Shown here piece by piece: positions 3,026-54,206 of a stretch of DNA of 64,000 nt; positions within the stretch are counted from its first letter, which is position 1, and the number at the start of each line of letters is the position of its first letter. The notes under the pieces are model-generated. The model saw only the letters and a program-made list of their open reading frames with translations. It did not search any database and had not been told where the DNA came from. Position numbers and translations under genes: made by a program. The stretch is from a virus, in IMG/VR virus record IMGVR_UViG_3300018080_000100, one strand, 5' to 3'.

Positions 3026-5035
3026 TTATACAGCAACTCGTCTGCCTTTCGAAACTCCTCCTGGCTTCCATCCGGGCATGCCTGTATGCAGTTCATTCAG
3101 CCCTCTGCGGCCCACGCTCGACGTGTTCACGTGTGACTTACGGTGGTTCCACGCCGCGGTGCGGTAACCTTGCTGCCACAGCTGCAGTCCGACCGTGTAA
3201 TCGCCTCCGTTGTGCCCGATATCGGGGTCTGGGATCATAGCTTCGCGCATAGCGGCTGTTTCGAGCGCCCAGAAGCCACCTGCAGCGAAGAAAACGTGCT
3301 GCGCATTGGGCGCTTCGGTCTTCTGCTTCGTCTGGAGCTGCCGGCCACGCCACCACGGGCGCTTCTTGGCCCATGCCAATTGCGCTGGATTCATGGTCCA
3401 GAAGCGCAAATCGCCGACCATGCGCGCCTTTTTCACGTATTCGTTGATGATTTTGGACGCCAGATGCGGATACCAGTCCGCATCGCGGTTCGCGATCGAG
3501 TCATCGTCGAACCAGACGATCCATTTCGTGTCGATCGGGTTGTTTTCATCCCAGAACAGCTGGCGCATGGCCGGATATTTCTTCCGGTTGTCGTCGTTCA
3601 GGATCAGCGTGTGCAGTTGACCCTCGTCGCGGAGGTCTTCGAGCCACTTTCGCGTCGACATGCACACCTGATTCGTTGCAATACGGATGTCGCGGCGCGC
3701 TGGAGACGTCGTTTTGAGGATACTGCCCAGGCAAGCGCGGTGCATATCCGGATAATCGCCGTACATCAGGATGCAAATGGTCATTTTGCCGCCAATTATC
3801 ACGTGATCGAGCACATTATCGACCGCGCGCTTCCCTCTGCCCTTTTTCGCCTTCCGTTCGCCCTGAAAAGCGTGCAAGAGCGCCGGCACATCGGCTTTCG
3901 GCGGGATTGTGACCGTCTTGGCGGCCTTTTTGCTGATGATTTGGTCCGCTGGCGCGAACAAATCGACCGAATTGGGCACCAAGACGCGCTTCGGGGGCGC
4001 TTCTGCCTTCGGAAGCACCAATTCCTTCGGTTTTCCGATCGGCGGCAGCGTGCCATCGTCGTAATAGCTCATGACAGCCTCCAAAACGTGATCGACAGTG
4101 ACCATTTTCAAGCATTCTGGGATCTTTTGGCCGTAGCCATCGTCGACAGGGCGCTTGCAGTATGATCTATGCTTGTCCTTCTGCGTATGCAGGATCTTGT
4201 TTTTCCAGCAGCCGCGGTCCTTACAGCAGTCCAACAGGCCCTGCGTGTGCAAATATCGATGCGGAACCTTCACTGATTGCGAATACGGCCCGAAATTCTC
4301 CACGCCAGCCACGTTGACGTATGCTTCCCACCACCAATGCTCTCGTCCGCCGGCCAGAACCACGCAAGGCTTATCGAAAGCGGCCGCCATGTGCATGAAA
4401 CAGGTGACCGGGCACACGATTCCCTCTGCATGGTAGACCAGCCACAGCACGTCGCGAAGGTTCGTCTTACCGACGAGGTCCATGGCGCCGTCGACAGGCG
4501 GGTTGACGTTGCCCTTATGGTTAGCGCCACAACGGACCATATGCAGGTTTTGCGCGCGCATTGCGTCAGCAAGCTGCTGCCAGCGCTGCGCGGACCACGC
4601 TTTCGTCGTGAAGTCCGACTTGTTGCCCGGTACGAGCAGCCAATAGCGCCCAGACAGCGGCGGATTCTTGTAATGCCACTCATCGAGGTGCAGATCGCCC
4701 TTCGGATGCAGGCACGGCACCGGCTGTCCGCACCGTTTCTGGAAGTCTCGGTGGAACGCCGTGACGAAATGCAGCTTCTTCCTGTTCGCCTCGGAGATGT
4801 ACTTGCCGTAGTTCAGATGAACCTGCTGCATATCACGCGGTACGTGGCCATGGTTGCCCGCGATATGCGGATTGTGGTTCCACAGCGTCTTACAATGTGT
4901 CGCCACGTGTATCTCGTACTTGCCGGGGTAGGCCAGCGAGATATCGCGCACGAGACCGGTCAGGCAAGTGATGTCGCCGGGCGCGCAGCCGTGGGTGATG
5001 ACGATAGGTTGGGCTGATTTTGATCTCATGATCAA
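3026..5035 (-). CDS. two-domain glycosyltransferase (N-terminal GT9 heptosyltransferase-like, C-terminal GT2/GT-A-like)
   Basis: The N-terminal half looks like ADP-heptose:LPS heptosyltransferase, with a C-terminal G-rich nucleotide-sugar pocket (VVLAGGREHWWWEAY). The C-terminal half has GT-A hallmarks (ILMYGDY...WIVWFDDDS, DxD-like DDD). Annotated start is TTG; ATG at 5029 (MRSKS) lies inside the palindromic element. Confidence 0.6.
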   Translation of the reverse strand: MIMRSKSAQPIVITHGCAPGDITCLTGLVRDISLAYPGKYEIHVATHCKTLWNHNPHIAGNHGHVPRDMQQVHLNYGKYISEANRKKLHFVTAFHRDFQKRCGQPVPCLHPKGDLHLDEWHYKNPPLSGRYWLLVPGNKSDFTTKAWSAQRWQQLADAMRAQNLHMVRCGANHKGNVNPPVDGAMDLVGKTNLRDVLWLVYHAEGIVCPVTCFMHMAAAFDKPCVVLAGGREHWWWEAYVNVAGVENFGPYSQSVKVPHRYLHTQGLLDCCKDRGCWKNKILHTQKDKHRSYCKRPVDDGYGQKIPECLKMVTVDHVLEAVMSYYDDGTLPPIGKPKELVLPKAEAPPKRVLVPNSVDLFAPADQIISKKAAKTVTIPPKADVPALLHAFQGERKAKKGRGKRAVDNVLDHVIIGGKMTICILMYGDYPDMHRACLGSILKTTSPARRDIRIATNQVCMSTRKWLEDLRDEGQLHTLILNDDNRKKYPAMRQLFWDENNPIDTKWIVWFDDDSIANRDADWYPHLASKIINEYVKKARMVGDLRFWTMNPAQLAWAKKRPWWRGRQLQTKQKTEAPNAQHVFFAAGGFWALETAAMREAMIPDPDIGHNGGDYTVGLQLWQQGYRTAAWNHRKSHVNTSSVGRRGLNELHTGMPGWKPGGVSKGRRVAV

Positions 5036-5039
5036 ATTT
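5017..5039. promoter_or_regulatory. copy 1 of a 23-bp imperfect palindromic element (ATTTTGATCTCATGATCAAATTT)
   Basis: Arms ATTTGATC/GATCAAAT around ATGA. Overlaps the stop of the 5039 gene and the start of the glycosyltransferase gene. Confidence 0.5.
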
Positions 5040-6133
5040 TACCACTTCCATTTCGGACAGTGCTCTGTCGCTACGCGGATCTTGTTGCGAATCGGGTTGT
5101 CTGGCTCGTAGCCGTCGAGCAGCTCCTCCAGCCGTTCTTCGTCACCGCGTAGTCCGCTGCAGCACTCGGCCGTGCACCGGGCGTCTTTCAAGTGCTCGCA
5201 GCACATGCAGAGCTTGTCGTAGATCAGCTCCACGGTCGCCTGGTCGCGCACGGCGTTGTGCTTGTTGTGCCACTGCTGCAAGCCGCGCGCATACCTGTGT
5301 GACTGTCGCGGCGACGGGTCGCCCGCACGCTGCAGCCGTGCCGGGCCGTGCCTCGGGAACTCGATACGCGGCATGTAATACGGCAGCGGATCCGACAATT
5401 CGACGCTGGGGTCCCACATAGGCAGCCGTATATCCAAGATACGCGCAGCCTCTGACAATTTCCTCTGCGTGACCTCTTCGCTATCCACGGTCAGCTGGTT
5501 CAAATGCAGCCACACGGGCTCGCACCACTCAAAACCGTGCTCAGCTGGTTCCTGCAACAGCTCGAAGTACGGCACGCGTTGTGGCTTGAGCATGATGCTG
5601 TGGGCCTCGTATGCTTTGCAGCTGAGCCTCCCGCGAATCTTTGCGTTGTGAAGGTGCGCCTCCTGTATCTCCTCGGCCTCTGAGTCGTAGCACAGCCATG
5701 TTGGCCAGAACTGCAGTCCGCGCTCGTCAGTCCATCCACGCCCGGCGAACTGGTACCCGTCTAGGAGCGCAGGCGCATTGACGATGCGCGCTGGCATCAC
5801 GTCGCCCTGCAATACAATGACGAAACGCTCTGGTTGGGCCAGTGCGTGGCGGCGCGCCTCGTCGACAATGGCGTGCAGCCGCCGCACCAGCATCAGGCCG
5901 CCGAATGACTCATCTATCTCGAGCAGTTCGACGCCGAGCGCCTTTGCCTGGTCTTCCATCAGGCAGCGATTGCCGGCTGAGAATGCCGGATCTGCGCCAA
6001 ACGGTCCCTGTACGACGACGATTCTGGAAAGCTGGTCGACATTCCTCCGCAGGGCGTCTATTTGCGCTGGAAGCATACGGAAGTTGTGCGACACCAAAGT
6101 GTAAACGATAGTGCTCATGCTACGGCGTAACAA
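5039..6133 (-). CDS. hypothetical protein, possibly glycan-modification associated
   Basis: 364-aa ORF directly upstream of the glycosyltransferase. No clear motif. Confidence 0.45.
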   Translation of the reverse strand: MLRRSMSTIVYTLVSHNFRMLPAQIDALRRNVDQLSRIVVVQGPFGADPAFSAGNRCLMEDQAKALGVELLEIDESFGGLMLVRRLHAIVDEARRHALAQPERFVIVLQGDVMPARIVNAPALLDGYQFAGRGWTDERGLQFWPTWLCYDSEAEEIQEAHLHNAKIRGRLSCKAYEAHSIMLKPQRVPYFELLQEPAEHGFEWCEPVWLHLNQLTVDSEEVTQRKLSEAARILDIRLPMWDPSVELSDPLPYYMPRIEFPRHGPARLQRAGDPSPRQSHRYARGLQQWHNKHNAVRDQATVELIYDKLCMCCEHLKDARCTAECCSGLRGDEERLEELLDGYEPDNPIRNKIRVATEHCPKWKW

Positions 6134-8282
6134 TCGGTGTACATTGTGTCGTCACGGTCGGGATTTGTCCTGTCGGATCGCATCCCTCGTTGACGATGTT
6201 CATGGTCCATGTGATTTCTGGCGGACAATCAGTGCTCTCCACAGGATCACTGACCCACGTCGGGTTGTAGTAATACTGGTTGGGAAACGTTTTCTTACAG
6301 CTGATGCCGCCAACAGAAGCATACCATACTCCGCACCGACATTCGATGATGAGCCACGCCTGCAAGCAATCGCCGCTGCCAGGTACCCAGCTATGGTAGT
6401 AATAGCACGTCTCGCTATCCGGGTTGGTCAGCGCGACATTGGTGAACGTGCCGTTCACGGCTGCGCACCAGCCCGACAGCCCGCTGATAGTGACCGTCAG
6501 CGGGTCACAGCAGGATGCACAGCTGCATTCGTGGCAGCAGCTGAGCGTGAACGTGCCGGTTGCAGAACCGCGCGTGTTCCACGTCAAGGTCGGGTCGTCC
6601 GGCCAATACAGCGAGCTGCTTAGGTCGTCGGAGTGGAACCCGTCGGTCGAGTCTGAGCAGTCAGCGTTCTTCGTAAACGACCAGCGACCCCAGCCTGCCG
6701 CGTAGTCAGTGTAGCAGAGGTACCAATCGCCGTAGCACTGCTTGTAGCGCGGCATACCGTCGTGGAAGCCGTCGATTGTATAGTTGCCAGAGATGTCAGG
6801 ATCACAGCCAGGCGCATCGCACGTCAGCGCATACCCGCCAGCGCCGCAGCTACAGGACCGCGACGACACAGACGACGATGACGACTTCTCGCACTGGCAG
6901 AACCAGATAATCTCGCCGTAGAAGCGCCCAGTGATGCACGGAGGGCCATGATGATCGTCGCCACCGTAGTGGACCCACTCACCATCGCTGGCATCCACTT
7001 CGCCGGGAACGTACGGACACGTGTCGTCGCCCCACTCTTGCTCGCAGTTGGGTGGCTCCATGTCGCGCTCGCACTGGCACCATACCCACGCGCTGCAGCT
7101 GTCCGACATCATGCACGCCTCGCCGGTAGCTATGCCGCCGTCATCAAGATCCTGGTCGAGCACTTGGTTCCAAGGCGGATCGTCGTACAGTACCAAGTCC
7201 CACCAGTACAACGGCACGTTCGGCATCGAACAGCTGCTGTTGGAGATCTCACTGAACGACGACTCGGAGATGTCCGAGAAGCTGGAGTACGAGCCACAGC
7301 AATGCCCGGTCATGATGGTCTCGCCGTAGAAGCGCCCCTGGACAGGCGGCGGACCCAGCTCGATACAACCTCCACGGAAAACCCACTCACCGTCTCCAAT
7401 AGCGCCCTGCTGGCAGTTCGTACCGTCGTCCGGACAGCACGGCAACACCTCGACGACGCCCGATGCACCATTCAAGAGTATGGTGTACTCGCCGATCGGG
7501 CAGTCTGGGTACGCGTCGGCAAGTAACCATGCCTCAGCGGATGCGTCGCCCTTCGTGGATGAGATCAGCCACTCGTCGGGGTCGCCGTCTTCGCCTTCGG
7601 CAAACCAGATCCACCAACTACCGTTCGTGAATGCGGGTTTGTCGCCGTACGTGCCGCTCTCGTTGTACGTACCAAGCGCTGCTGCTGGTGTGGCACCTGG
7701 ACCGAATACGCGCACGCAGTCCTGCAAGCCCGGATACGACAGCGAACCGTCCGAGCACGGGCACCAGGTCCACACACCGCGCGCGCCCTCGCCACACGGT
7801 TCGTCAGGGAAGATGAGCTGCGGCACATAGCCACCCAGATCGAAGTCGCCGTACGGGATCTCCCATGGATGCGGTTGGCCCTCAGGAAAGTCATCGCCGC
7901 ATGAGCCTTCGCCTGGCTGTGGATTCAACGACCACGACGTGTCGCCGCCTTCGCTGCCGTACTCCTGTTCGTCAGGGCACCGGCAGATGATCGAGACCTC
8001 TCCGTAGAAGCGCCCCTCGAAGCACGGTGGGCCTAGGCAGCCGTCGCCGCAGCGCAGATACCAGCCACCTTCGCCAGCGCACGAAGGCTGACAGATGTCG
8101 TCCATCGAACAGGATAGCTCATCGCCTGTACGCTCGCAGTAGTCCCACTCCTGATAGGGCGAACAGCGACACCACACCCAGATAGAGCATTCCGCATTCG
8201 GCATGCTGGTGCTGAATCTTCCATCGGGCTGTTCGAGAATCCAATCAAACGTCGGCATCGAACACGATTTTGGCGCTGCCAT
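6120..8282 (-). CDS. cysteine-rich protein with threefold internal repeat (virion or secreted protein candidate)
   Basis: About 70 Cys in 720 aa. Module GPPC..GRFYGE(I/V)I..C.C occurs three times. The module CSMP...W(V/I)WC(R/Q)C occurs twice. The coding repeat CGCCGTAGAAGCGCCC occurs three times at DNA level (about 6905, 7325, 8005). Confidence 0.6.
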   Translation of the reverse strand: MAAPKSCSMPTFDWILEQPDGRFSTSMPNAECSIWVWCRCSPYQEWDYCERTGDELSCSMDDICQPSCAGEGGWYLRCGDGCLGPPCFEGRFYGEVSIICRCPDEQEYGSEGGDTSWSLNPQPGEGSCGDDFPEGQPHPWEIPYGDFDLGGYVPQLIFPDEPCGEGARGVWTWCPCSDGSLSYPGLQDCVRVFGPGATPAAALGTYNESGTYGDKPAFTNGSWWIWFAEGEDGDPDEWLISSTKGDASAEAWLLADAYPDCPIGEYTILLNGASGVVEVLPCCPDDGTNCQQGAIGDGEWVFRGGCIELGPPPVQGRFYGETIMTGHCCGSYSSFSDISESSFSEISNSSCSMPNVPLYWWDLVLYDDPPWNQVLDQDLDDGGIATGEACMMSDSCSAWVWCQCERDMEPPNCEQEWGDDTCPYVPGEVDASDGEWVHYGGDDHHGPPCITGRFYGEIIWFCQCEKSSSSSVSSRSCSCGAGGYALTCDAPGCDPDISGNYTIDGFHDGMPRYKQCYGDWYLCYTDYAAGWGRWSFTKNADCSDSTDGFHSDDLSSSLYWPDDPTLTWNTRGSATGTFTLSCCHECSCASCCDPLTVTISGLSGWCAAVNGTFTNVALTNPDSETCYYYHSWVPGSGDCLQAWLIIECRCGVWYASVGGISCKKTFPNQYYYNPTWVSDPVESTDCPPEITWTMNIVNEGCDPTGQIPTVTTQCTPIVTP

Positions 8283-8288
8283 CAGCCG

Positions 8289-8672
8289 CTACTCCTTGCG
8301 GACTTTCAGAAATTCCTTTAGCTGCCCGACGGACATACTTCCAACATGATACTTGTATTGCCACTTGCCGTCGACTTTCCAGAACAGAAACAGCTGAGGT
8401 ATCGAGCGCGTCTTTGCCAACTTGGCAGCCTTTGCTGCTGCTTTGGGCTGCTTGTCCACGTCAAATCGGATGTAGCGAACATGATTCAGTCCACCTGCCT
8501 TGCGCACCGCGGGGATGACCTCGTTCTTCATCTCCCTGCACGGCGGACAGCCCTCAGAACCCATTACGATGAATCGCGGCTTCTCTTCCTGCGGCGGATT
8601 GGCGACAGCCATCGCGATGTTGACTGCGTACAGCAAGCCGACGATCGCCAGCAGGTTGTAGATGGTGCGCAT
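8289..8672 (-). CDS. thioredoxin-fold thiol-disulfide oxidoreductase with N-terminal signal/anchor
   Basis: Hydrophobic N-terminus LLAIVGLLYAVNIAMAVA, then a CPPC active-site motif in thioredoxin-like context. Confidence 0.7.
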   Translation of the reverse strand: MRTIYNLLAIVGLLYAVNIAMAVANPPQEEKPRFIVMGSEGCPPCREMKNEVIPAVRKAGGLNHVRYIRFDVDKQPKAAAKAAKLAKTRSIPQLFLFWKVDGKWQYKYHVGSMSVGQLKEFLKVRKE

Positions 8673-8686
8673 AGTTCCCTCCTTGG

Positions 8687-9688: not shown

Positions 9689-9874
9689 GCTTATGTCACT
9701 TCTGCATTATTGTCACGGTGGGGGTAAAAATAGCATTAACTGTCCGGATTCGTCGCAAACCCTACGCCTATAGGGGTTTGCGTTAGTCACGATGCGCAAT
9801 TACTGTTTAGTAACGGGTTTGGCCGGGGTCCTTATGTCAGTCCTGGGTCATGCAAAAAGCGCGGTGACTCAACA
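9689..9874. promoter_or_regulatory. AT-richer 186-bp intergenic region with hairpin and GTGAC repeats
   Basis: Hairpin GCAAACCCTA-cgcc-TAGGGGTTTGC. GTGAC(A/T)A appears three times on the coding strand. A -10-like CAATAAT lies about 21 nt before the 9688 start. Confidence 0.3.
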
Positions 9875-11374: not shown

Positions 11375-11383
11375 CAGTAACTC

Positions 11384-12980: not shown

Positions 12981-12988
12981 GATACCTC

Positions 12989-17683: not shown

Positions 17684-18152
17684 AACTCTTTCCCCATTTC
17701 GCGAGCTGTTTACGGATGGCTTCCTTGCCCTTCTCACTTCGAGGATCGCTGAAACGCTTCACATAGGTATTACGCATCTCTTCGTTCGCTATCAGCTGCG
17801 CCTGGCGTCCGGTCGGCACCCACGGCAGTAGCTCGCTGAGAAGCTGGTTGCGCAAAGACTCGGTCTGCTTATGGTGCAGATTGAACGCCATCTGGTCTGC
17901 GCCATAGTCTAGTAGCGCCAGATTGAACTGGTACTGATGCTCCCGCGCCTGAATACGCAGCTTCCGCGCGACATGCTCGACAACGAGGTTGGCTTTACGC
18001 CACCATCTTATGTCAAGTATATCACCGCCCAGGTCCAACAGCCCCTCGCAATGTGCGTGGAGCAGCAAGCATGTTAGGCGGTTCTGTCGAAAAAATCGGG
18101 GTCTTCCGCCTTCGCTTCCATGTACTGCAGCACCTGGTTGAACTGCACCCAC
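17661..18152 (-). CDS. hypothetical protein (start uncertain; may be only 17661..17891)
   Basis: The long form overlaps the upstream gene by 78 nt. An internal Met at 17891 gives a 76-aa product. Confidence 0.3.
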   Translation of the reverse strand: MGAVQPGAAVHGSEGGRPRFFRQNRLTCLLLHAHCEGLLDLGGDILDIRWWRKANLVVEHVARKLRIQAREHQYQFNLALLDYGADQMAFNLHHKQTESLRNQLLSELLPWVPTGRQAQLIANEEMRNTYVKRFSDPRSEKGKEAIRKQLAKWGKSYVRRFAP

Positions 18153-19270
18153 TGCGAGCTGATCGCGCGCCGTAGGCTATCGGTGGTGCAGATGTCGTTG
18201 TCGATGTACTCTTTCAGTGCCAGGATCGGCGACTCGCCCTCATCGACATCGATCGCGTCGACTTCTGGGAGCGTTACAGGGCCTTGACCAGCGCGCGTAA
18301 CGGACTCGACGCCCATGGCCATCTTGTACGTCTCTGCGATGCGCACGTACTGCATGATGTGCTGGATCTTGCCGTTAGCCATCTCCTGGTCGGCCAGCTG
18401 CAAAGCCATGTCGACCTCCCGCGGCAGCAGCCCGCGGAATACGACCTTGACGCGCCCGCCAAACAGGTTGATCTCCTTACGGAAACGCGCTTCGCCCATG
18501 ATCGCTGCCAGGTAGGCCGCGACATCCTCGTTCGTGGGCGTGACCAGTTCGCCGTTCAGGTCGTGGTTGCAGCGCGGGCAGTTGACGGTGGTGCCGGCCA
18601 GGTCGCCGCCAGCGCCTTCGATCGGACCTGCGTCAAACCCGTCCGTCTGCGGTGCTTCGGGTTCCTCGTCGACTGGGTCGGGTCCCTTCTCCTTCAACTT
18701 GAACGGTGGCGCAGGCGGCGCGTCTGCCGCAGCGGGCGGCGCGGGAACGTCGCGCTCGCGCTCGGCCTCAGCTGCGGCCGTGGCTACCGCCACCGCGGCG
18801 GCTGCGCCCGGCTTTGCCATCATGGCCCGCTTGGCGGCCATCCGCTTGTGCTTTGCGGCCTGGCGTTTGGCCGTCATGCTGTCCTGTAGTTCGTCCATTT
18901 CCTGGAACACGCGCAACGCTTCGGCGCGCTCAGCAGGCGGCAGCGTATCGACGTCCACCGGCTCGGGCGGATCGATAGCTGGCGTGCTAGGATCGATCGG
19001 GTTCAGGTGTGAATGGTCGGCGGCCTTGGCAACCACAGTGGCGACCTGATCCTGCAGGTCGTCGGTGATCTTCACGCTGCTTGGCGCTGCGTCCACAGGC
19101 GCTGCCATGGCCTCCCTAACCAGCACATGCTCCGTTTCGGTCAATTCCTCGGTGCCACGCACCGCATCCAGAGGCACTCTGCCGATTACAGTACCGGGCC
19201 GCATCGGGAGCCCTTGATGGCCCTCGTTGGCGGTCGGGACTGGGAAACGGCCACGTCTTGCCTTACTCAT
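18074..19270 (-). CDS. hypothetical tail-assembly protein with Ala/Pro-rich linker
   Basis: 398-aa ORF. Contains a CPRC motif and the AAAVAVATAAAEAERE linker. Confidence 0.45.
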   Translation of the reverse strand: MSKARRGRFPVPTANEGHQGLPMRPGTVIGRVPLDAVRGTEELTETEHVLVREAMAAPVDAAPSSVKITDDLQDQVATVVAKAADHSHLNPIDPSTPAIDPPEPVDVDTLPPAERAEALRVFQEMDELQDSMTAKRQAAKHKRMAAKRAMMAKPGAAAAVAVATAAAEAERERDVPAPPAAADAPPAPPFKLKEKGPDPVDEEPEAPQTDGFDAGPIEGAGGDLAGTTVNCPRCNHDLNGELVTPTNEDVAAYLAAIMGEARFRKEINLFGGRVKVVFRGLLPREVDMALQLADQEMANGKIQHIMQYVRIAETYKMAMGVESVTRAGQGPVTLPEVDAIDVDEGESPILALKEYIDNDICTTDSLRRAISSQWVQFNQVLQYMEAKAEDPDFFDRTA

Positions 19271-23503: not shown

Positions 23504-24313
23504 TCAGCTTCCCTCCTCTGGATCTACAGTGTAGATGATATCACCGAACTCAGCCAGCCGCAGCTCTGCACGCACGATTATGGGCACTCTGCCCAGCTCG
23601 GCAAGCGTCTGCACTTGGCCGATAACGTAGCGACGATCGCTATTGGCGTCGATCCACACGTCGTTCCGATGGAGCATCGGCACGCCGACGAACGAACCGG
23701 CCAATGTGACATCATTGACAGTACCCTTCTCCGAGCGCTTCGTGTCGTTGCCCTCGGGCGTCAGGTCGTACATCGTGTTCTCGGTGGCCTTCCAGTACCC
23801 GTCGACCTTGCCGGTGCCGTGGCAGACGGCGCAGTCGGAGTTCAGGATGCCGCCCGTGATCGGGTCGACGCAGCCGGTCTCAGTACAGGCCGTGCCGTAC
23901 AGCTTGCGCTTCATCAGGTAGCCAGGAAGCCGATCAAGGCCGCGTGGCGTAAGTAGTTGCCGGCGGATGATTGCACGCGCTTGAAGCCACTGGCGCTTAG
24001 ACAGGTTGCCGAGTACCTGTGCGTTCTCGCTCGTGTATGTCTCCCACGGCGTCGTGAGCACGACCCGGTACGCCGTACGCAGCGACTTGGCGTGCTGGCG
24101 CTGGCTGTCGTCGAGGGCGTAGTACGTGTTGCGCACCGACGAGCCGACGTTGGACCAGGTGCCGCCACCGTCCTGGTTGACCTGGAGCTGGAAGTCCCAA
24201 GGCAACGGATCGAGCAGATCTTCACGTACCTCCCACGTGATGCGGGCTCCGCCGGTCATGGCGTAGTCCACATAGATCCGCTTGATGCCGTCTTCGCTCT
24301 TGGTTAGTGGCAT
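23504..24313 (-). CDS. hypothetical structural protein
   Basis: 269-aa ORF. One copy of the palindromic element sits directly upstream of its start. Confidence 0.45.
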   Translation of the reverse strand: MPLTKSEDGIKRIYVDYAMTGGARITWEVREDLLDPLPWDFQLQVNQDGGGTWSNVGSSVRNTYYALDDSQRQHAKSLRTAYRVVLTTPWETYTSENAQVLGNLSKRQWLQARAIIRRQLLTPRGLDRLPGYLMKRKLYGTACTETGCVDPITGGILNSDCAVCHGTGKVDGYWKATENTMYDLTPEGNDTKRSEKGTVNDVTLAGSFVGVPMLHRNDVWIDANSDRRYVIGQVQTLAELGRVPIIVRAELRLAEFGDIIYTVDPEEGS

Positions 24314-24315
24314 TG

Positions 24316-24339
24316 AATTTTATTCATGAGATCAAAGTT
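24316..24339. promoter_or_regulatory. copy 4 of the palindromic element (AATTTTATTCATGAGATCAAAGTT), opposite orientation
   Basis: Lies in the 28-nt intergenic gap upstream of the 23504..24313 gene. Confidence 0.45.
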
Positions 24340-24341
24340 GA

Positions 24342-25325
24342 CTACCAGCGCCACATGCCGAAGCGCCCGTACCGGCCGCCGAAGGTACCGAAGCCGCGCT
24401 GCGCATTCATCTGCGCCTTCTGGTGCATGACCATCTTCTTGAACTGCGCGTACTCGTCCTTCCAGGCCGAGTTGTACTCCCGATGCCGGTTCTTGTCGTC
24501 GGTCGTGGTGCCGCCAGCGCTGTGCTTGAAATGGTTACGGCGGTAGTGCTCTTCGGCCATCTGGAACAGGAACAGCTTGGTGCCGGCCGTCCAGATCTCT
24601 CTGAACGGGAACGTGAACGTCGAGTAGTTCGCCGCGTTCATGATCGGCGGCTGCTCGTTCCAGAAGTTGACCGTCCGGATCGCCGCATGGCAGATCTCCA
24701 CGACACCGAAGTCGTAGTTCTCCAGCAGCTCGTTCTCGTACGGGCTGTTGTCACGGAGCGCCAGGCGCATGTCGTCGACCAGTGGTGGGCCGTTGTACGT
24801 GCTGTCGCCGCAGCAGGTCCACGCCGAATGCTCCATGTAGATGTAGACCTCGTCGGTGAACAGCAGCTCGCCGTCGGAGTTGATCGCCCCAGCTTCTGCA
24901 AACCAAATACCAGGCTGCGTCATGACCTGGGACGGTACGACACACATGATGATGCCGTCCGCGGCAGACAGCACCGCGGCCTGGATCTGGTACGTGGTCG
25001 GGATCTTCATCGACGCCTCGCGGAAGCGCACCATGACATGGCCATAGGTGGGGCTGGCGCTAGAGCTCGAGCTGGAGTCCAGCATCTCGAGCCCGGCGCT
25101 GCCTGAAATGCCATAGCTGGACAGATTGACGCCGTTGCCGTCGCGATCGCGCATGATCATGCGCAAATAGACGGTCGTACCCTCTCTGGCCTTGCACGCA
25201 CGCTTCTTGGTCAGCAGCTGCTCGTCGAACGCCTCGCTGATCTCCGGGATCAGGATGTCGAGGTCGTTGCACGTCTGCAGCTCGTAGGCTGTGCGCAGCC
25301 AAATCGGTGTAGCATTAACAGGCAT
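24342..25325 (-). CDS. hypothetical structural protein
   Basis: 327-aa ORF. Confidence 0.45.
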   Translation of the reverse strand: MPVNATPIWLRTAYELQTCNDLDILIPEISEAFDEQLLTKKRACKAREGTTVYLRMIMRDRDGNGVNLSSYGISGSAGLEMLDSSSSSSASPTYGHVMVRFREASMKIPTTYQIQAAVLSAADGIIMCVVPSQVMTQPGIWFAEAGAINSDGELLFTDEVYIYMEHSAWTCCGDSTYNGPPLVDDMRLALRDNSPYENELLENYDFGVVEICHAAIRTVNFWNEQPPIMNAANYSTFTFPFREIWTAGTKLFLFQMAEEHYRRNHFKHSAGGTTTDDKNRHREYNSAWKDEYAQFKKMVMHQKAQMNAQRGFGTFGGRYGRFGMWRW

Positions 25326-28549: not shown

Positions 28550-28585
28550 ATCAAAAAATAAGGCGGCGGCACATGCCGCCGCCTT
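28550..28585 (-). terminator. rho-independent terminator
   Basis: AAGGCGGCGGC-ACAT-GCCGCCGCCTT, a perfect 11-bp stem, followed on the minus strand by ATTTTTTGA. Confidence 0.6.
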
Positions 28586-28614
28586 TGGTAACGACGCTAA
28601 GACTCGGAAAACAC

Positions 28615-38313: not shown

Positions 38314-38317
38314 TTGG

Positions 38318-38340
38318 ATTTTGATCTCATGAACAAAATT
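38318..38340. promoter_or_regulatory. copy 2 of the palindromic element (ATTTTGATCTCATGAACAAAATT)
   Basis: Lies in the 29-nt gap between the 38343 stop and the 38313 start. The ATG inside the element opens a 6-codon uORF, MRSKSK. Confidence 0.5.
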
Positions 38341-38342
38341 GG

Positions 38343-38795
38343 CTAGTTCCGCTCGTTGCCGACCTCGCATTCGAGGGCGAGCTCGAACTCCAGCCCGTTG
38401 TCGTTAGTGGGCACGGTAATGTGCAGGTACACAGCGCGTACAGGCACCGTGAATGTACCCTCGCGATTGCGGTAGGACCACGGGCCGTCGTTCTCGAACA
38501 GCTCCAGCACCACCCCCGCATTGACATTCTGGGTGGGGATGATCTTGGCTAGCGCCTGCGTCATCGGGTCCACGTCTTCAAGCGACGTCGACGAGCCGCT
38601 ACCTACGTCGCAGACCTGCCGGTCAAACAGGTTGACCACCAAGGCCACAGCCGGTCCGCTGGACTGCCGCAGCAGCATGCGGGTGATGCGTCCCTCTTGC
38701 GGGAAGCCGATCTCGAAGCACTGGCTCAACTCTCCGCCAGGCAGGTACAGCTGTGTCCCCTGGGACTCAACAAATTCACGCTTGTAGATATGCAT
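38343..38795 (-). CDS. hypothetical protein
   Basis: 150-aa ORF. Confidence 0.4.
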   Translation of the reverse strand: MHIYKREFVESQGTQLYLPGGELSQCFEIGFPQEGRITRMLLRQSSGPAVALVVNLFDRQVCDVGSGSSTSLEDVDPMTQALAKIIPTQNVNAGVVLELFENDGPWSYRNREGTFTVPVRAVYLHITVPTNDNGLEFELALECEVGNERN

Positions 38796-43452: not shown

Positions 43453-43453
43453 G

Positions 43454-44146: not shown

Positions 44147-44226
44147 GGCAAAGCGAACTCCAGTGAGGGTTCATGATATCTTACCAGCTTATCGGGGACG
44201 CGGTGTTTATACAATCCGACTGTCCG

Positions 44227-48597: not shown

Positions 48598-49469
48598 TAG
48601 GCAAGCTCAGTAGAAGGCTTCAATTGGATGGGGGTCGTTCCGCCAAAGCGCTCCTTGGCGCGCCGCTTCAACGCTTCCTCGGCGATGAGGCGCTCGTTGC
48701 GCTTCTTGAAGTAGTCGTAGCTGAGTTTGCCGCTGGCAAGCGCGGACAGCATGGCGTAGCTCAACAGCATGCCGAGGCCTTGGCTCGGTATATCGCTGAT
48801 CGCAGCCTGCTTCTCGACGGGCTCTGTGACAATCTCAGCCAGGTCGTCGAGCTCTTGCTCGATGGAGGTGTCGTCGGCGCTCTGCTTAGCCAGCGTGGCG
48901 TTCAACAGCTGTTCGTATTCGTCCTTGGCACCCTCAAGCTCGCTGTCCAGCTCCTGTCGGCGGCGCCAGTCCAGGATCTTGTCGACTAGCTTCCAGCCGC
49001 CGTAACCGCTGACCATGGCCGCCGGCAGTCCGAGTGTCCACAGCGCAGGGTTCGAGTACGGCGACGAGGCTTGCCGGCCCCAGAACGTGGACTCGCCCCA
49101 CGGCAGGTCCTCAGTCGCGCCCTTGAGCTTGTCATAGAGCCATGCGCCTGGGTTCGGTACCGCTTCTTTGTCCATGCCCGTTTTCTCTGCCTCTTCCTCT
49201 TCCTCCGGCATCATAATGCCGATCGACTGGAAACTGGGCGTAGGTGAGAAGCCGGACTCTTGACGACCTAGACGCAATGCACCAAGACCGGTACGGCCAA
49301 GCGCGCCCAGCCCCGCGGCAGCAAGAATCCACTTCCACATCTCAGCATTAGCGCGCTGCCCCGCCGATGCAGCGTCGGCTGGGCTAGGTTGCAAGATGTT
49401 GTCCCAGATCGACGGATCGGCGCTAAGCTTAACTAGGTCGTCGTAGCGCGAATTGGGTTGAGCTTCCAT
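48597..49469 (-). CDS. membrane protein (about 3 TM segments)
   Basis: Start ATG at 49469 with GGAGGGAG RBS. Hydrophobic segments MWKWILAAAGLGALG, LWTLGLPAAMVSGYGGW, GLGMLLSYAMLSALAS. Confidence 0.4.
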   Translation of the reverse strand: MEAQPNSRYDDLVKLSADPSIWDNILQPSPADAASAGQRANAEMWKWILAAAGLGALGRTGLGALRLGRQESGFSPTPSFQSIGIMMPEEEEEAEKTGMDKEAVPNPGAWLYDKLKGATEDLPWGESTFWGRQASSPYSNPALWTLGLPAAMVSGYGGWKLVDKILDWRRRQELDSELEGAKDEYEQLLNATLAKQSADDTSIEQELDDLAEIVTEPVEKQAAISDIPSQGLGMLLSYAMLSALASGKLSYDYFKKRNERLIAEEALKRRAKERFGGTTPIQLKPSTELA

Positions 49470-49824
49470 GCCCTGTACTCCCTCCGGATGGTTGGCTTGG
49501 TGACAGTACGTAACACTGTGTCCATTCGAGGTAGATGATCGGCCACTCTTTGTCTTCCGGCCAGTTACGCGACTCGTGGTCTCTGATGAACAGGCCGTTG
49601 CGGATACGATCACGCACCCAGTTGTAGTATTCTCGGTCCTCCTGCTTGTTGAGGTCGAACACGTGCTCGTGCGCCTGGCCGACAACAGGCAGCGCTTCGA
49701 CCTCCTTCTGTTTCAGTGACGGCGCCGTCTCCCCTTGGAAAGGAAAGCCGTTGGCACCTGGCCACTGCAACGCTCCGTCGTATCGGTCGTCTTGTTCGCC
49801 GTGATACTTACTCTGCGTGTGCAT
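49429..49824 (-). CDS. hypothetical small protein
   Basis: 131-aa ORF. Its 3' end overlaps the next gene in another frame. Confidence 0.3.
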   Translation of the reverse strand: MHTQSKYHGEQDDRYDGALQWPGANGFPFQGETAPSLKQKEVEALPVVGQAHEHVFDLNKQEDREYYNWVRDRIRNGLFIRDHESRNWPEDKEWPIIYLEWTQCYVLSPSQPSGGSTGHGSSTQFALRRPS

Positions 49825-49827
49825 CCT

Positions 49828-50181
49828 TTAACCCGCTCCCATGCCAGCCTGCTGACGTGCCTGCAGCCGCTGTAGCTGCTCGACGGCCCGCTGGTACTCG
49901 CTGATCTCTTCGCGCTTGTACGCCTCGTTCTTGTCGAACGTGTCGTTCTGCGCCTTGGCGAGCATAGCGCCGCCACCAACGCCGACAAGTGGCGGAGCCA
50001 GCAGGGCTAGTGGCCAAGCCGCGCCGAACATGGAACGGAGAGTATCCCAAGCGCCACGGGCAATACCGGACTTGAGCATGAACTTTGCCTGGCGGATACG
50101 CAGGAGCGTTTCGTCCTCTGACAAACCGTCTTTGGCGCACTTCTCCAGGAATCCGATCTTGAATGCTTCCTTGGGGGTCAT
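49828..50181 (-). CDS. small membrane protein
   Basis: Hydrophobic core AAWPLALLAPPLVGVGGGAMLA. Confidence 0.35.
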   Translation of the reverse strand: MTPKEAFKIGFLEKCAKDGLSEDETLLRIRQAKFMLKSGIARGAWDTLRSMFGAAWPLALLAPPLVGVGGGAMLAKAQNDTFDKNEAYKREEISEYQRAVEQLQRLQARQQAGMGAG

Positions 50182-50184
50182 TTC

Positions 50185-50700
50185 CTACCTCCGGTTAGCA
50201 CGTGCGCGCTGTATCGCGGTGGCGCGCTGTGGTGTGATCATGTTCGACGCCCCGAGCGTCAGGTCGGGCGTTACGGTGACTCCGGCCGAGAGCGTATCGG
50301 CTGGCGTACGTCCTTTTCCCTTTATCTTGAGCGGCGCTTGGCCAGGCATCGCCGGAAGCTCGTGCGGCATCACGATTGTGCGCTTACGCTGATGCCTGAC
50401 GACATGGTCCAGAACCGACGGATCGGTAGGATCGCCCTGCATCTTCGCCAGCTTGCACGCCTCCTTGGCATCGTTGACCATTTTGCGCAGTTCAGCCGCT
50501 TTGCTGGCATACAGCTCGGGGTCCTGCATGAGCGCAGCAATTGCGCGCTTCATGAACTCGCCCGGCGGTATACGCCAATGACTCTGCTTGGTACTAGCGC
50601 TATCCGCAGCGATTTCTGTGTCGACAAGGCTGATCATGCCTGTCTCGGCCCAGAACTCGAGATGCTGGAAACGGTAGTGTCGGCCCTCTCCTCGTGACAT
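50185..50700 (-). CDS. hypothetical protein
   Basis: 171-aa ORF. Confidence 0.35.
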   Translation of the reverse strand: MSRGEGRHYRFQHLEFWAETGMISLVDTEIAADSASTKQSHWRIPPGEFMKRAIAALMQDPELYASKAAELRKMVNDAKEACKLAKMQGDPTDPSVLDHVVRHQRKRTIVMPHELPAMPGQAPLKIKGKGRTPADTLSAGVTVTPDLTLGASNMITPQRATAIQRARANRR

Positions 50701-50752
50701 TTTTGGTCCTCCAAACTGCGCTTACTCATAATAACTGATCCTGGCACAGCTG

Positions 50753-51274
50753 TCATGGCAGATACAGTCCTGCATGGCCAGCAGTAACCATCAGCTTGTT
50801 CAAATTGACTCGTTGCACCATCTGGCGTGTGGGGCCGTCAGCCTCGGAGCCGATCAGCTCCACCAGCCAACGGCCGAACTTTCCGCGGCAGGCGCGCGGC
50901 CGGTAGTCGTTCTTCGGCCGCAGCTTCTTATGGGTGCGTACGCCGATCCACCAGCCGTTGCCGGGCCAATCGCCCGCTTCAGCGCGATAACTGTAGTAGC
51001 GCTGGATCAACTCCCGCAGGTAGTCTCTGGCAGCAGTGCCAGCTTTACGCGTGGACAGCGGCCTAATCTCCGGCGCCTGGATGCCGTAAAGGCGGTAGTG
51101 CAGCGGACCAACCCACTGCTCCATGCCCAGATCGATAATCAGCGTGACGGTATCTCCGTCGTAGATCGCGGGTTCGCCATCCTCATTCTCGGGGATCAGT
51201 CCGAAGTACGTGTAGTCCTGCAGGCTGAGCGGGGCATCTTCGGATAGTGTTTCGATAGGGCGGGCCATTGACAA
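50753..51274 (-). CDS. staphylococcal-nuclease (SNase/thermonuclease)-like nuclease
   Basis: YDGDTVTLIIDLG...YRLYGIQAPE matches the SNase DGDT...R(L)xGIDAPE signature. Confidence 0.6.
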   Translation of the reverse strand: MSMARPIETLSEDAPLSLQDYTYFGLIPENEDGEPAIYDGDTVTLIIDLGMEQWVGPLHYRLYGIQAPEIRPLSTRKAGTAARDYLRELIQRYYSYRAEAGDWPGNGWWIGVRTHKKLRPKNDYRPRACRGKFGRWLVELIGSEADGPTRQMVQRVNLNKLMVTAGHAGLYLP

Positions 51275-51276
51275 CC

Positions 51277-51840
51277 TCAGTTAGCAAGCATGACAGCAAA
51301 AGCAGAATCACCTGCACGGGACAGTACGTGCATCTCACGATTATTGTCGTCTGCCCAGGTGTAAAAGTCCACTAGCAAGCTGTCAACTACTATGACGGTT
51401 GTCCCGCACACCAGTCGGTGGGCCAGCCGATCGAGCAGGTCGGGCACCTCGTCCTGCAGGTAGAGCAACGAGATGTGGCTGCCCTGCTTACGACGGAACG
51501 TCGTGACCTCGTCGGCGTTGGTCAGGCAGAAGATGTGCTGCTGCGGCATCGTATCGTTGAGGACGCGGCGTACAACCGCCTCCTCGTCCAACGCGCCCGC
51601 AAAGACTACCAGGCCATCCGTGGTCGCCTGGGTGCCCATCAGCGCTACAAACCGCTCGTGTACAGCGAAATGCTCCTTTGCAGCACGGAGGTCGTCGATC
51701 GACGTGGCTGTGTCTGTAGGCAGATCGAACTTCACAGTGGACGCTTGGCGCGCTGCATGGCTTTTTCGTCTACGGTTACGCGCTGGCCCCGTAGGCCGAC
51801 GACGCCCCTTCTTACGTAATCGCTTACGCCGCATTGGCAA
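51277..51840 (-). CDS. hypothetical protein with Arg-rich N-terminus
   Basis: Opens with RRKRLRKKGRRRPTGPARNRRRK. Confidence 0.35.
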   Translation of the reverse strand: MPMRRKRLRKKGRRRPTGPARNRRRKSHAARQASTVKFDLPTDTATSIDDLRAAKEHFAVHERFVALMGTQATTDGLVVFAGALDEEAVVRRVLNDTMPQQHIFCLTNADEVTTFRRKQGSHISLLYLQDEVPDLLDRLAHRLVCGTTVIVVDSLLVDFYTWADDNNREMHVLSRAGDSAFAVMLAN

Positions 51841-51852
51841 TACCTCCGCATG

Positions 51853-52512
51853 CTACGAAGGTACGCCCAACGTAAACATGTAGTGCAGCAACGGCGAGCG
51901 TGCGAGCGCGCCTGGTGATGTGTAATGGTCGGGCATGTTGCGCACGACGTCCGTGAATGCGCGGCGCAGCGCACAAGATACTGCCTCGCTGCAATACGGC
52001 GGCCGTCCGCGGTCTTCGAGATCGTCGTCCGTCGGCGGCCGGAAGAAGAAACGCACGCCAGGAAGGTGGATCAGCGATGTCCACAGGATGTGCATCTTGC
52101 CGTACTCGCCGGGGCGACAGAAGTCACGTGCAGTCATCACGGCCTTCTTGCGATCCAGCACCTTCGTCTCGCCTTGCTGCGACTGCGTACCGTCGTCCCA
52201 CCAGTATTCAGTGTGCGTGTCAGCGCAGCGATAGACGTCGATCATGCCGGGCCACTTCTCAACATGCGCCGCTAGCGTTGTACTCTGTCCGCCGCGCCAA
52301 AGCATCTCGTAGGCCATCAGGCGGTTGTACTCACTGTCGGGATCGCCGTTGGTCCAGCCGGCCATACCCACGTGCGAATAGATCGACAGCCCGGCGATGG
52401 CAACGCACTTCGGGATGAATCCGCGCCGACGATATAGCAACACATCAGCGTCGAGGATGTGCTGACGTGCCTCATCGTACGGGAGGAAAACTTTTTCTGA
52501 ATCGGATGGCAT
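51853..52512 (-). CDS. possible permuted NlpC/P60 (LRAT-like) thiol hydrolase/acyltransferase
   Basis: His-containing segment HILWTSLIH precedes the C-terminal YCSEAVSC, which resembles the LRAT NCEHF box. Confidence 0.3.
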   Translation of the reverse strand: MPSDSEKVFLPYDEARQHILDADVLLYRRRGFIPKCVAIAGLSIYSHVGMAGWTNGDPDSEYNRLMAYEMLWRGGQSTTLAAHVEKWPGMIDVYRCADTHTEYWWDDGTQSQQGETKVLDRKKAVMTARDFCRPGEYGKMHILWTSLIHLPGVRFFFRPPTDDDLEDRGRPPYCSEAVSCALRRAFTDVVRNMPDHYTSPGALARSPLLHYMFTLGVPS

Positions 52513-53023
52513 TCTCTTGCTCCTTGGTCAGCTTATGCGCCGTGAATTTCCCCATCACGTCCAGTTGTGGTTCGTATGCCGGCGTCATACGTGCGCGGTG
52601 ACCCTCCAGTGTTGGATACGTCCCGGTGTCTTGCACTTCGCGGAATACCTCGGTTGCGCTGTGATGCCCGGGCACGTACTCCGGGGCGCAGCGTGCGCGT
52701 GTTGGTAAGTGATGTACGCCGGTAATTACAATGTCCGGCTCGCCAGGGTGGTATGTCTGCTCCGAGCGCTCGAACACCGCTGGGATCTTACCGGCCGCGG
52801 CCTTGTAGTCGAGCACGATCCGGTCAGCTTCTAGCGCACCGGGCTTTACACGCCGCTGAAACTCTGCCAAGAATTCTTCCATTGAGATCCTCGCTGCAGA
52901 TGCTTCCAGTTGACGATAGTTACCGAGCACGGCGCGCTCGCGCTCCAGCTCGTCCTGTTTCTTTGTCAGCTCTGCAGAACGCCGCAGGTATTCTTCTGCC
53001 GACATACTTCCACCATCGCTCAT
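52472..53023 (-). CDS. hypothetical protein
   Basis: 183-aa ORF. Confidence 0.35.
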   Translation of the reverse strand: MSDGGSMSAEEYLRRSAELTKKQDELERERAVLGNYRQLEASAARISMEEFLAEFQRRVKPGALEADRIVLDYKAAAGKIPAVFERSEQTYHPGEPDIVITGVHHLPTRARCAPEYVPGHHSATEVFREVQDTGTYPTLEGHRARMTPAYEPQLDVMGKFTAHKLTKEQENAIRFRKSFPPVR

Positions 53024-53033
53024 CGGTCATCCT

Positions 53034-54179
53034 TTACAACATGCCGGTGATACCACGAATGGCTCCGGCGAGCAGACCAGCCCGTTGAATGCCCTTCTGC
53101 ACTGGCGGGGTCAGTCCAAGGAACTTGCCGGCCAACGATCCAAGGTAACCGTAACCGTAGCCAAGGCCGGCATTGACGGCGACGGACGCTACGTCACGCG
53201 GCGACACCAAGTTTGAGCCGCGCATAGCGCCTGCTGCAGCAGGAACGCCAGCAGCAATCGCCTTCTCTGGATTGTCTAGGAACGGGTCGCGCATTACAAC
53301 CTCTCCCCACTCATTCGTGCTGAATTTCGGCAGCATGCCGCCGGAGAGGTCCGCACACTTCGTGAATGCGTCTTCGTCGATCGTGACGTTGAGTTCGCTC
53401 GTCAGCCTGTCTAGCACGTCGGCGAGTACGCTCGATGCGCCCTTCACGCGCTCGTAGTGCTGTGGGTCTGGGATCGGCCCGTACTGACCTGTGCGCACAT
53501 CGTTGGCGCCGAACTCGTAACCAGCGGCGCCCGGCTTGGGCAGGTTCTCTGTGCCACGCGGATAGGCCCACTGCTTAGTCTTGCCGTCCCACTTGCCGCC
53601 AGCAGTCAACCGGGCGACATTGGCACCAGGAGCCATGTCAGCGGCAGGGACGTTGGGTGCGTTGGCATACGCAGGGCCACCCTGTAGCGGCTGCTGTGTC
53701 CACAGGCCACTAATACCCTGATTGCGCAACGCAGGCAGACCATGGATGAACCCAGGCACAGCTGCGCCGCCGAGCGCCCCGATCGCGCCGAACGCGGTTG
53801 GCGTGCGCTTGTTGAACCACTGCGGGAACAGCTTGTTGAGAATCCACCCGCTGCCATAGCCTAGTCCGCCAGTCAGCGCGCCGGTCAGCAGCATCGACGT
53901 GAGCGGATTGGGTCCACCGATGTACTCCTGCACCTTGCCGTGCGCATCGCCCATCTGCTTGAAACTGGGAATCATCCCGCGGAGCTTGTCCATCCAGGTA
54001 GGATCCGGAGCAGCGGCCCACTTCACCATGACCGGCCCGACCTCTTCGGTGTCGAGCACCCAGCCAGCGTCGTGATTCTGCTCGCCCTGCGTCAGCTCGT
54101 ACGCTGCGCCAGCGTATTTCACGTACAGATCCTTCACGCGGAAGGGTACAGACGCCCAGTTTTGGTTGCTGTCAGTCAT
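53034..54179 (-). CDS. Gly-rich hydrophobic protein
   Basis: 381-aa ORF with GLGYGYGYLGSLAGKFLG-type segments. A copy of the palindromic element lies 4 nt upstream of the ATG. Confidence 0.4.
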   Translation of the reverse strand: MTDSNQNWASVPFRVKDLYVKYAGAAYELTQGEQNHDAGWVLDTEEVGPVMVKWAAAPDPTWMDKLRGMIPSFKQMGDAHGKVQEYIGGPNPLTSMLLTGALTGGLGYGSGWILNKLFPQWFNKRTPTAFGAIGALGGAAVPGFIHGLPALRNQGISGLWTQQPLQGGPAYANAPNVPAADMAPGANVARLTAGGKWDGKTKQWAYPRGTENLPKPGAAGYEFGANDVRTGQYGPIPDPQHYERVKGASSVLADVLDRLTSELNVTIDEDAFTKCADLSGGMLPKFSTNEWGEVVMRDPFLDNPEKAIAAGVPAAAGAMRGSNLVSPRDVASVAVNAGLGYGYGYLGSLAGKFLGLTPPVQKGIQRAGLLAGAIRGITGML

Positions 54180-54183
54180 AGCA

Positions 54184-54206
54184 TTTTGATCTCATGAACA
54201 AGATTC
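54184..54206. promoter_or_regulatory. copy 3 of the palindromic element (ATTTTGATCTCATGAACAAGATT)
   Basis: Lies in the intergenic 54180-54233, 4 nt upstream of the 53034..54179 start. The ATG inside the element opens the uORF MRSKCYD. Confidence 0.5.

Follow-up and report, generated by a model that had tools for sequence, protein, structure and literature searches.

The 64,000-nt stretch of viral DNA analysed here (IMGVR_UViG_3300018080_000100; the window) carries four copies of a 22-bp palindrome, ATTTTGWTC-N4-GAWCAAAAT (W is A or T). Further copies continue at near-even intervals into the adjoining DNA of the same genome and recur at orthologous positions in related phages. Our best reading is that the copies are dispersed double-stranded DNA (dsDNA) sites for a lineage-specific homodimer that acts genome-wide as a silencer, roadblock or boundary; this reading is tentative, and we put its probability at roughly 0.4. 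Giant phages with a multisubunit RNA polymerase (RNAP) and a sigma factor of their own are almost unstudied outside the phiKZ group, and the clade examined here has only distant cultured relatives (Arash, Vibrio D69-like).

Copies and anatomy of the palindrome

Using exact-protein matches, we placed the window on a 226,517-bp contig (ENA ERZ27256796 k141_2629452). DNA of the same genome was added on both sides: locus L155, which reaches 7.1 kb past the right end of the window, and locus L157, which reaches 7.4 kb past its left end. L155, the window and L157 were joined in gene sense to give a sequence of 78,566 bp, hereafter G. All other L-numbers denote loci of relatives. One relative, phage B (IMGVR_UViG_3300025133_006513 = Ga0208299_1000027; 153,465 bp), was assembled over positions 1-58,390 from L248, L164 and L260. 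The window has a GC content of ~60%, every real gene in it lies on the minus strand, and megablast against GenBank phages gave no match to it. No more than four strong intrinsic terminators were identified over the 78.5 kb of G.

All four copies reported for the window by the initial annotation are present (Table 1). Each has at most two mismatches to ATTTTGATCTCATGAACAAAAT, and 100 dinucleotide-preserving shuffles of the window contained no match. Their locations stand as described, with ends that were off by 1-2 nt, and the element is 22 bp rather than 23 bp long. The dyad also stands, and a dimer site remains the best reading of it, but comparison with the flanking DNA and with related phages extended the proposed 8-4-8 arrangement to 9-4-9. 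Scanning G with a symmetric half-site matrix yielded six sites of 19-35 bits, the next-best position scoring 7.8 bits; the repeat is non-random. The two additional sites are a fifth strong copy in L157 and a weak sixth copy (c6, 19 bits) in L155; five of the six lie in gaps of 54 nt or less.

Over 24 half-sites the arm reads A-[T/A/C]-[T/C]-T-T-G-W-T-C. Position 7 is A in 12 half-sites and T in the other 12, and all four arm combinations were seen. The 4-bp centre is variable, being ATGA, ATAT, AGCA, AGCT, ACCT, ACAG, CTAG or ATGT. Because position 7 is W, all arm combinations occur and the centre varies, the element is a true palindrome without definable orientation. The second copy, c2, had been described as inverted; since arm position 7 is simply A or T, it differs from the others only as a W and centre variant. 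We therefore dropped c2 as evidence for orientation independence, the site itself having no orientation. The centres of the half-site cores are 10 bp apart, as is usual for sites bound by dimers. A link to Dam methylation at GATC was rejected because the TTGTTC/GAACAA sites contain no GATC.

The four window copies fill stop-to-start gaps of about 0, 28, 29 and 54 nt. Copy c1 adjoins the stop codon TAA (5041-5039) of a 364-aa gene, and the ATG in its centre (5029-5027) is the start codon of a GT9+GT2 glycosyltransferase, as had been proposed; the public gene call uses the same start. Copy c2 lies 3 nt past the stop of gene 24342-25325 and 3 nt ahead of the ATG of gene 23504-24313. Copy c3, which equals the consensus, lies 3 nt past the stop of gene 38343-38795 and 4 nt ahead of the ATG (38313) of a 319-aa gene, and c4 is found 3 nt ahead of the ATG (54179) of a Gly-rich 381-aa gene. 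The L157 copy is followed by a normal AGGAG Shine-Dalgarno (SD) sequence, with the ATG 11 nt after the site, and c6 spans codons 3-10 of a 133-aa gene. Direct repeats of 3 nt, resembling target-site duplications, were noted beside c2 (TCA...TCA, 24314-24341) and c3 (CCA...CCA, 38314-38342). They are probably due to chance, since most other copies lack them.

Conservation and spacing of the sites

At orthologous junctions of related phages the arms are kept, though the flanking proteins are only 56-72% identical, and the 4-bp centre varies. At the c1 junction phage B carries ATTTTGTTC-ATGG-GATCAAATT, the centre ATG of which is again the start of the glycosyltransferase. The c2 junction shows sites at different distances from the start codon: 48 nt ahead of it in L161/162 (ATTTTGATC-ATAT-GAACAAATT), 25 nt ahead with an SD present in L163 (AATTTGATC-TGCT-GAACAAAAT), and 1 nt ahead in L164 of phage B (ATCTTGTTC-ATGA-GATCAAAAT). 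The last is identical to window copy c4 at 22 of 22 positions. No site was present at this junction in L160 (76% aa identity) or in the clade of 55-61% identity. At the c3 junction, sites were found in L243, L244/245, L246/247, phage B and contig D. The phage B copy is a perfect palindrome (TTGTTCAGCTGAACAA); the contig D copy shares its last 2 nt with the ATG, that of L244/245 stands 110 nt ahead of the start, and a degenerate site of the 51% clade lies at L249 9967. The c4 junction has sites in L111/D, L262 and L279. In L279 the site and the 26 nt downstream are 100% identical to the window, whereas the upstream DNA has diverged.

In the distant clade the sites have drifted to TTATTC/GAATAA (L249 9967, L108 17697), a pattern that suggests co-evolution with a phage-borne binder. 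Only six positions reach 14 bits in 1.06 Mb of distant-relative loci, three of them at orthologous positions, and ~1 Mb of loci from relatives with the same RNAP (48-55% identity) contained no such site. Strict pattern scans of IMG/VR recovered phage B only, the remaining hits being chance or a coding motif of unrelated low-GC phages, and no host or prophage emerged from a scan of genome contigs. K-mer enrichment in intergenic DNA was uninformative, the longest-ORF (open reading frame) gene calls having swallowed the sites.

That the copies lie at gene starts, as the initial annotation had it, is true of the window junctions but is not obligatory. Across the window and the relatives, the distance from site to next start ranges from -9 to +110 nt and that from site to previous stop from -1 to ~100 nt, and some copies lie within genes. 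Phage B site 946 (L248 946-967) is located in the coding sequence of the RNAP beta subunit, where KLKFVPRNKVDYQL stands against KLKYVAAKDVDYQL in the window. The codons AAA TTT GTT CCT AGG AAC AAA GTT (KFVPRNKV) of phage B correspond to AAG TAC GTC GCC GCC AAG GAC GTC (KYVAAKDV) in the window. Phage B site 37127 falls in a variable low-complexity linker (PEISSPEQ) of the homolog of window gene 18074-19270. Linker sites of this type occur in three lineages (L164 17662, L163 17757 and, degenerate, L108 17697 of the 59% clade), and the window has none. At phage B site 19384 the stop codon of the upstream gene coincides with the site centre.

The sites of G (positions 4368, 16913, 32778, 46779, 66079 and 78473) are separated by 12.5, 15.9, 14.0, 19.3 and 12.4 kb, that is, by about 15 kb with a coefficient of variation (CV) of 0.19. 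Compared with random sampling, this spacing has a P of 0.002 by CV and of ~1e-4 by smallest gap. In phage B, sites at 946, 9859, 19384, 29443, 37127 and 48453 leave gaps of 8.9, 9.5, 10.1, 7.7 and 11.3 kb (about 9.5 kb; CV 0.14, P=5e-4). Three of these are the shared c3, c2 and c1 junctions, and the extra sites 19384 and 37127 lie near the midpoints between them. In ~210 kb of motif-bearing DNA (including L163, L244, L243, L111/D and L262), no two counted sites were less than 7.7 kb apart; a counted site has both arms at or above ~8.7 bits, a threshold set after inspection. From this we infer that genomic position itself is under selection. We know of no description of evenly spaced organiser sites in a phage.

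Possible function and binding protein

In the reading that we favour, the 22-bp palindrome would be a high-affinity dsDNA site for a phage-encoded, homodimeric, sequence-specific protein. The sites would not be tied to particular genes but would be laid at near-regular intervals on a long, co-directionally transcribed genome. Most stand exactly between a stop codon and the next start, which would be the easiest place: coding sequence of 60% GC can hardly accommodate an AT-rich palindrome of 22 bp. Where no junction is available, the site would be written into a tolerant stretch of a gene. Bound dimers could then form a distributed silencer or roadblock, or could mark boundaries, or points at which a protein that spreads or forms loops is loaded. 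An operator-like role might be added where a promoter adjoins, as at c4 and perhaps at the MerR-like gene described below. The anatomy of the sites, their conservation, lack of orientation, variable centre and even spacing are established from the sequences; binding by a protein, the identity of that protein and an effect on transcription are what we infer.

The c4 junction was analysed by sequence comparison. A T-run followed by TAGCTATCAG is conserved just upstream of the site. In L111/D, L262 and L279 the order is a terminator T-run, TAGCTA, 22 unconserved nucleotides, TATACT, 9-18 nt, the site, 1-4 nt and the ATG. In the window, a 33-nt deletion has removed the spacer and TATACT, and the terminator stem is degenerate (54205-54233 compared with L279, L262 and L111). 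TAGCTA-N22-TATACT is a putative promoter, which would put the site in an operator-like position over the transcription start. No further instance of it was found elsewhere in G, phage B or contig D. As the pattern does not recur, no promoter is evident for any of the other copies, which are located within long co-directional units. A search at c4 for a sigma-70-type promoter found none.

Two proteins were considered as binders. The initial annotation had pointed to a 74-aa ribbon-helix-helix (RHH)-like protein, a proposal that did not fare well. Its matches are all sub-threshold (HicB, E=0.025; TprA; MetJ), no palindromic site lies near its gene, and, though 80% identical in the motif-bearing L262, it also has a 46% homolog in the motif-less L273. 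The second protein, of 133 aa, is encoded in L155. It matches MerR_1 over the whole winged helix-turn-helix (HTH; E=0.017) and the GlnR/TnrA structure 7tea (E=0.03), both sub-threshold; no NCBIfam match and no homolog in the phage database were obtained. Motif-less L273 lacks the gene at the syntenic position, and the weak site over the gene's own codons 3-10 suggests autoregulation. We regard the 133-aa MerR-like protein as a better candidate than the RHH protein, though as a lead and not a result, because both of its matches fall below curated thresholds.

A number of points count against the favoured reading. No DNA-binding domain was detected among the 68 proteins of G (Pfam, E<=0.01), both candidate binders being sub-threshold, and the binder may be host-encoded. 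Seven of the 12 orthologous copies abut the start codon, with the A-rich arm 1-4 nt ahead of the ATG, and displace the SD; constraint on coding sequence explains this only in part. Roadblock, silencing and spreading would be roles assigned by analogy. The weakest site, c6, feeds the six-site statistic of G, and with the five strong sites only P becomes ~0.007. Contig D has a one-armed match (20.8 bits; arms 5.2 and 15.7) 3.2 kb from its c4 site; this match was excluded, and counting it would break the statement of a 7.7-kb minimum gap. Finally, the spacing rests on five gaps per genome because it covers ~78 of 226 kb here and 58 of 153 kb in phage B.

Some of the same features could reflect a function in mRNA, as an A/U-rich leader, a hairpin or leaderless mini-uORF (upstream ORF), or an inter-cistron RNase processing site. 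The window genes after c2, c3 and c4 lack an SD, whereas most other genes have GGAG-type SDs; the arm close to the ATG noted above would suit such a role, and the glycosyltransferase does start at the centre ATG. However, hairpin energies were 0 to -3 kcal/mol in eight of nine copies, substitutions break pairs and are not compensatory, and Rfam gave no match at the gathering threshold in the window, L155 or L157, on which grounds an RNA or cruciform hairpin was rejected. The mini-uORFs described earlier can be read in the sequence, but they are not conserved. The centres ACCT, ACAG, AGCT, AGCA and CTAG contain no ATG, which is lost in orthologs and in the fifth copy, and translational coupling was rejected; judged from these comparisons, the ATG inside the site and the mini-uORFs arise incidentally from the most frequent centre. 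Moreover, some copies stand 25-110 nt from the start with a normal SD, others lie mid-gene, and even spacing has no RNA-level rationale. We consider a function in mRNA improbable. Still less can be said for a promoter, or core promoter part, used by the multisubunit RNAP and sigma-like factor of the phage, also suggested at the outset. The phage does encode a beta-beta'N fusion, beta'C and a sigma70-like protein, and virions of the distant relative Arash contain beta, beta' and sigma (PMC10585845). The genome is GC-rich, whereas the site is rich in AT and located upstream of genes. Yet the site is symmetric while all genes run in one direction, and the start codon often follows the site by 1-4 nt or falls within it, so that a -10 to +1 distance could not be accommodated. 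No sigma-70-like geometry was seen, and the hexamer spacing (-35/-10, 16-18 nt) does not fit. At c4, the only promoter-like junction, the site is downstream of a separate promoter-like element, and the site is absent from the ~1 Mb of relatives with the same RNAP. A promoter is thus most unlikely.

The spacing bears on further accounts. KorB OB and N15 IR (inverted repeat) sites are dispersed around the replicon. Our sites could likewise be architectural, partition-like or clamp-loading sites, that is, parS- or OB-like anchors for a ParB/KorB-like or other spreading, sliding or looping protein that would coat, condense, insulate or segregate the phage chromosome, their junction location being incidental. 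In favour of this are the even spacing, seen in two phages and with the extra sites close to midpoints, the tolerance of sites inside genes, and a palindromic form like that of KorB OB or of the four IR centromere sites of N15 (IR1-4, PMC7205306). On the other hand, no ParB-like or partition protein was found among the 68 proteins of the 78.5 kb, known parS sites do not resemble an AT-rich site of 22 bp, and many copies lie tight against start codons and one against a promoter-like element; we judge the account unlikely. Also unlikely is a 'genomic ruler', in which selection would keep one site per ~8-19 kb, even rewriting RNA polymerase codons. A phage protein of limited range would load, bridge or block at each site, and the sites would split the co-directional genome into equal domains (topological, transcriptional or protective). 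A selfish element or its footprint, such as a miniature palindromic insertion formed by a pair of terminal repeats placed end to end, or a site for recombination, nicking or an endonuclease, would have no regulatory role and might owe its spacing to target immunity. It would account for gain or loss at the c2 junction (absent from L160 at 76% aa identity, present in 69-71% relatives), and for insertion exactly between stop and start with 3-nt repeats flanking c2 (TCA) and c3 (CCA). But orthologous sites persist with intact arms over 56-72% protein divergence, most copies have no flanking repeats, the coding-sequence sites differ from the window by codon and amino-acid replacement rather than length, and no transposase or endonuclease partner was seen, so that this origin is very unlikely. 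Lastly, the site could be that of a co-opted host transcription factor, for example a CRP/FNR-like or other global regulator. The FNR consensus is TTGAT-N4-ATCAA and that of CRP is TGTGA-N6-TCACA. The arm TTGAT/ATCAA equals the FNR half-site, but here the arrangement is TTGAT-N6-ATCAA instead of the N4 of FNR sites and the TTGTTC arm is equally frequent, which excluded a site of the FNR/CRP type. Phages do borrow host regulators, for example through CtrA sites (PMC9437464). The drift in the distant clade nevertheless suggests a phage-borne partner and the scan of genome contigs found nothing, and we think a host factor improbable as well.

Returning to dispersed sites for a phage-encoded homodimer, the element would work most like the stoperators of cluster A mycobacteriophages, the conserved inverted repeats (CIRs) of phiC31, KorB OB sites and the dispersed N15 IR centromeres. 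The phiC31 CIRs are a highly conserved ~17-bp inverted repeat found in many intergenic regions of a GC-rich phage, where they serve as repressor operators; they are tied to the early promoters of a temperate Streptomyces phage, and we know of no even spacing or intragenic copies among them. KorB OB sites may be promoter-adjacent, distant or intragenic, and the KorB dimer acts at a distance and genome-wide. The KorB OB sites of plasmid RK2 and the N15 IR sites resemble ours in being short, dispersed, perfect palindromes that act regardless of gene context; they differ in being 13-16 bp long, GC-rich and bound by ParB-family proteins. ParBc had no match among the 68 proteins of the 78.5 kb, ~148 kb of the genome lying outside that scan. 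To our knowledge, near-even spacing has not been reported for KorB OB or N15 IR sites. Proteins of the MerR/GlnR-TnrA family bind dyad sites as dimers, and the candidate binder has a sub-threshold MerR-type winged HTH. A classical MerR operator, however, lies within a 19-20-bp -35/-10 spacer, whereas c4 is downstream of the -10-like TATACT and the other copies have no promoter-like context. TnrA/GlnR sites (TGTNA-N7-TNACA) are unlike the palindrome in spacing and location.

Stoperators are the sites of the L5 gp71-type immunity repressor (PMC9283540). Like the palindrome, they occur as many lineage-specific copies across the genome, mostly in very short intergenic gaps of co-transcribed genes and also at promoters, and they are proposed to block both initiation and elongation, as bound dimers would in a roadblock here. 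In contrast to the palindrome, which is 22 bp long, without orientation and evenly spaced at every 8-19 kb, stoperators are asymmetric 13-14-bp sites, strictly orientation-dependent and found every ~2 kb. Their repressor binds as a monomer that has two DNA-binding domains, whereas a dimer would bind here. No L5 gp71-type repressor (HTH plus stoperator domain) was found among the 68 proteins scanned, which represent a third of the genome. The start-associated sequences (SAS) and extended SAS (ESAS) of cluster K are repeats a few nucleotides upstream of unrelated starts, sometimes with inverted repeats, and their function is unknown (PMC3203893). The SAS differ in being 13 bp long and asymmetric, with the SD core AGGAG, 3-7 bp from the start and in one orientation (PMC3203893). 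The palindrome contains no AGGAG, its distance from the start is variable and some copies are intragenic. We found no literature report of near-even spacing or of sites in essential genes for stoperators, CIRs, KorB OB, N15 IR or SAS.

A regular palindrome kept inside essential genes would point to a genome-wide layer of control or organisation built from one cis site and one protein. The prediction is about 15 regularly spaced sites per genome. Regular spacing, should it be borne out, would amount to a design principle new to phage chromosomes; otherwise the sites would still add a clear new case to the dispersed operator sets of which stoperators and KorB sites are examples.

Other features of the window

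Coordinates of the sites and of other features are collected in Table 1.

Table 1. Palindrome copies, candidate binders and other features (window positions unless a locus is named)
Feature	Position	Strand	Sequence or remark
Site c1	5017-5038		gene-sense AATTTGATC-ATGA-GATCAAAAT
Site c2	24317-24338		gene-sense ACTTTGATC-TCAT-GAATAAAAT
Site c3	38318-38339		gene-sense ATTTTGTTC-ATGA-GATCAAAAT; consensus copy
Site c4	54183-54204		gene-sense ATCTTGTTC-ATGA-GATCAAAAT
Fifth strong copy	L157 20339-20360		ATCTTGTTC-ACCT-GATCAAAAT
Weak sixth copy (c6)	L155 4368-4389		AAGTTGATC-ATGT-GATCAAAAA
T-run and TAGCTATCAG	54214-54229	-	conserved, just upstream of c4
RHH-like protein, 74 aa	62926-63150	-	binder candidate of the initial annotation
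MerR/GlnR-like protein, 133 aa	L155 4361-4762		2.4-2.8 kb past the right end of the window
Glycosyltransferase (Glyco_transf_9 and GT2-like), 667 aa by public gene call	3026-5029	-	
Sigma70-like protein, 246 aa	12240-12980	-	in structural module
RNAP beta'C (rest of beta'), 629 aa	41303-43192	-	
RNAP beta-beta'N fusion, 1456 aa	44227-48597	-	
TGAC(A/G)TAAG copies	9690-9698, 9831-9839, 18007-18015, 58976-58984, 59087-59095	-	second intergenic motif

The RNAP is ~32% identical to that of its closest cultured relatives, Salmonella phage Arash and Vibrio phages D69/D148/D181. A beta-beta'N fusion is common to ~44 IMG/VR contigs of 90-220 kb. In contig D the fusion gene encodes 1800 aa, and the match in L111 is ~1 kb longer; the comparison suggests that the extra length is an insertion or intein.

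A second intergenic motif, TGAC(A/G)TAAG, occurs five times in the window against 0.42 expected. Two pairs of copies flank gaps of 100-130 nt that hold GC hairpins, the proximal copy standing 1 nt (TGACATAAGcATG) or 11 nt ahead of the next start, and in L161 a related ACATAAGCGGGG follows a hairpin. Possible explanations of the motif are a promoter, a signal for processing, or duplication on either side of a small insert.

A 580-aa Ro60/TROVE protein with a vWA domain is encoded at window positions 1-1539 (minus strand; L157 11444-13186). The 1.27 kb after this gene (L157 13187-14456) have no called gene and no Rfam match at the gathering threshold, and this stretch could hold a Y-RNA-like partner. 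The gene at 54913-58965 encodes a 1350-aa protein with a LigD 3'-phosphoesterase-like domain and the C-terminal part of an ATP-dependent DNA ligase; nearby are genes for a 2H-SAK/InPase protein (59743-61116), a thymidylate kinase and a histidine phosphatase. One of the four strong intrinsic terminators lies at 28559-28586 (minus strand) and consists of AAAGGCGGCGGCATGTGCCGCCGCCTT and a T-run; next comes TTGACTATACATACAAGGAG, similar to the CTATACAT-SD arrangement of L244.

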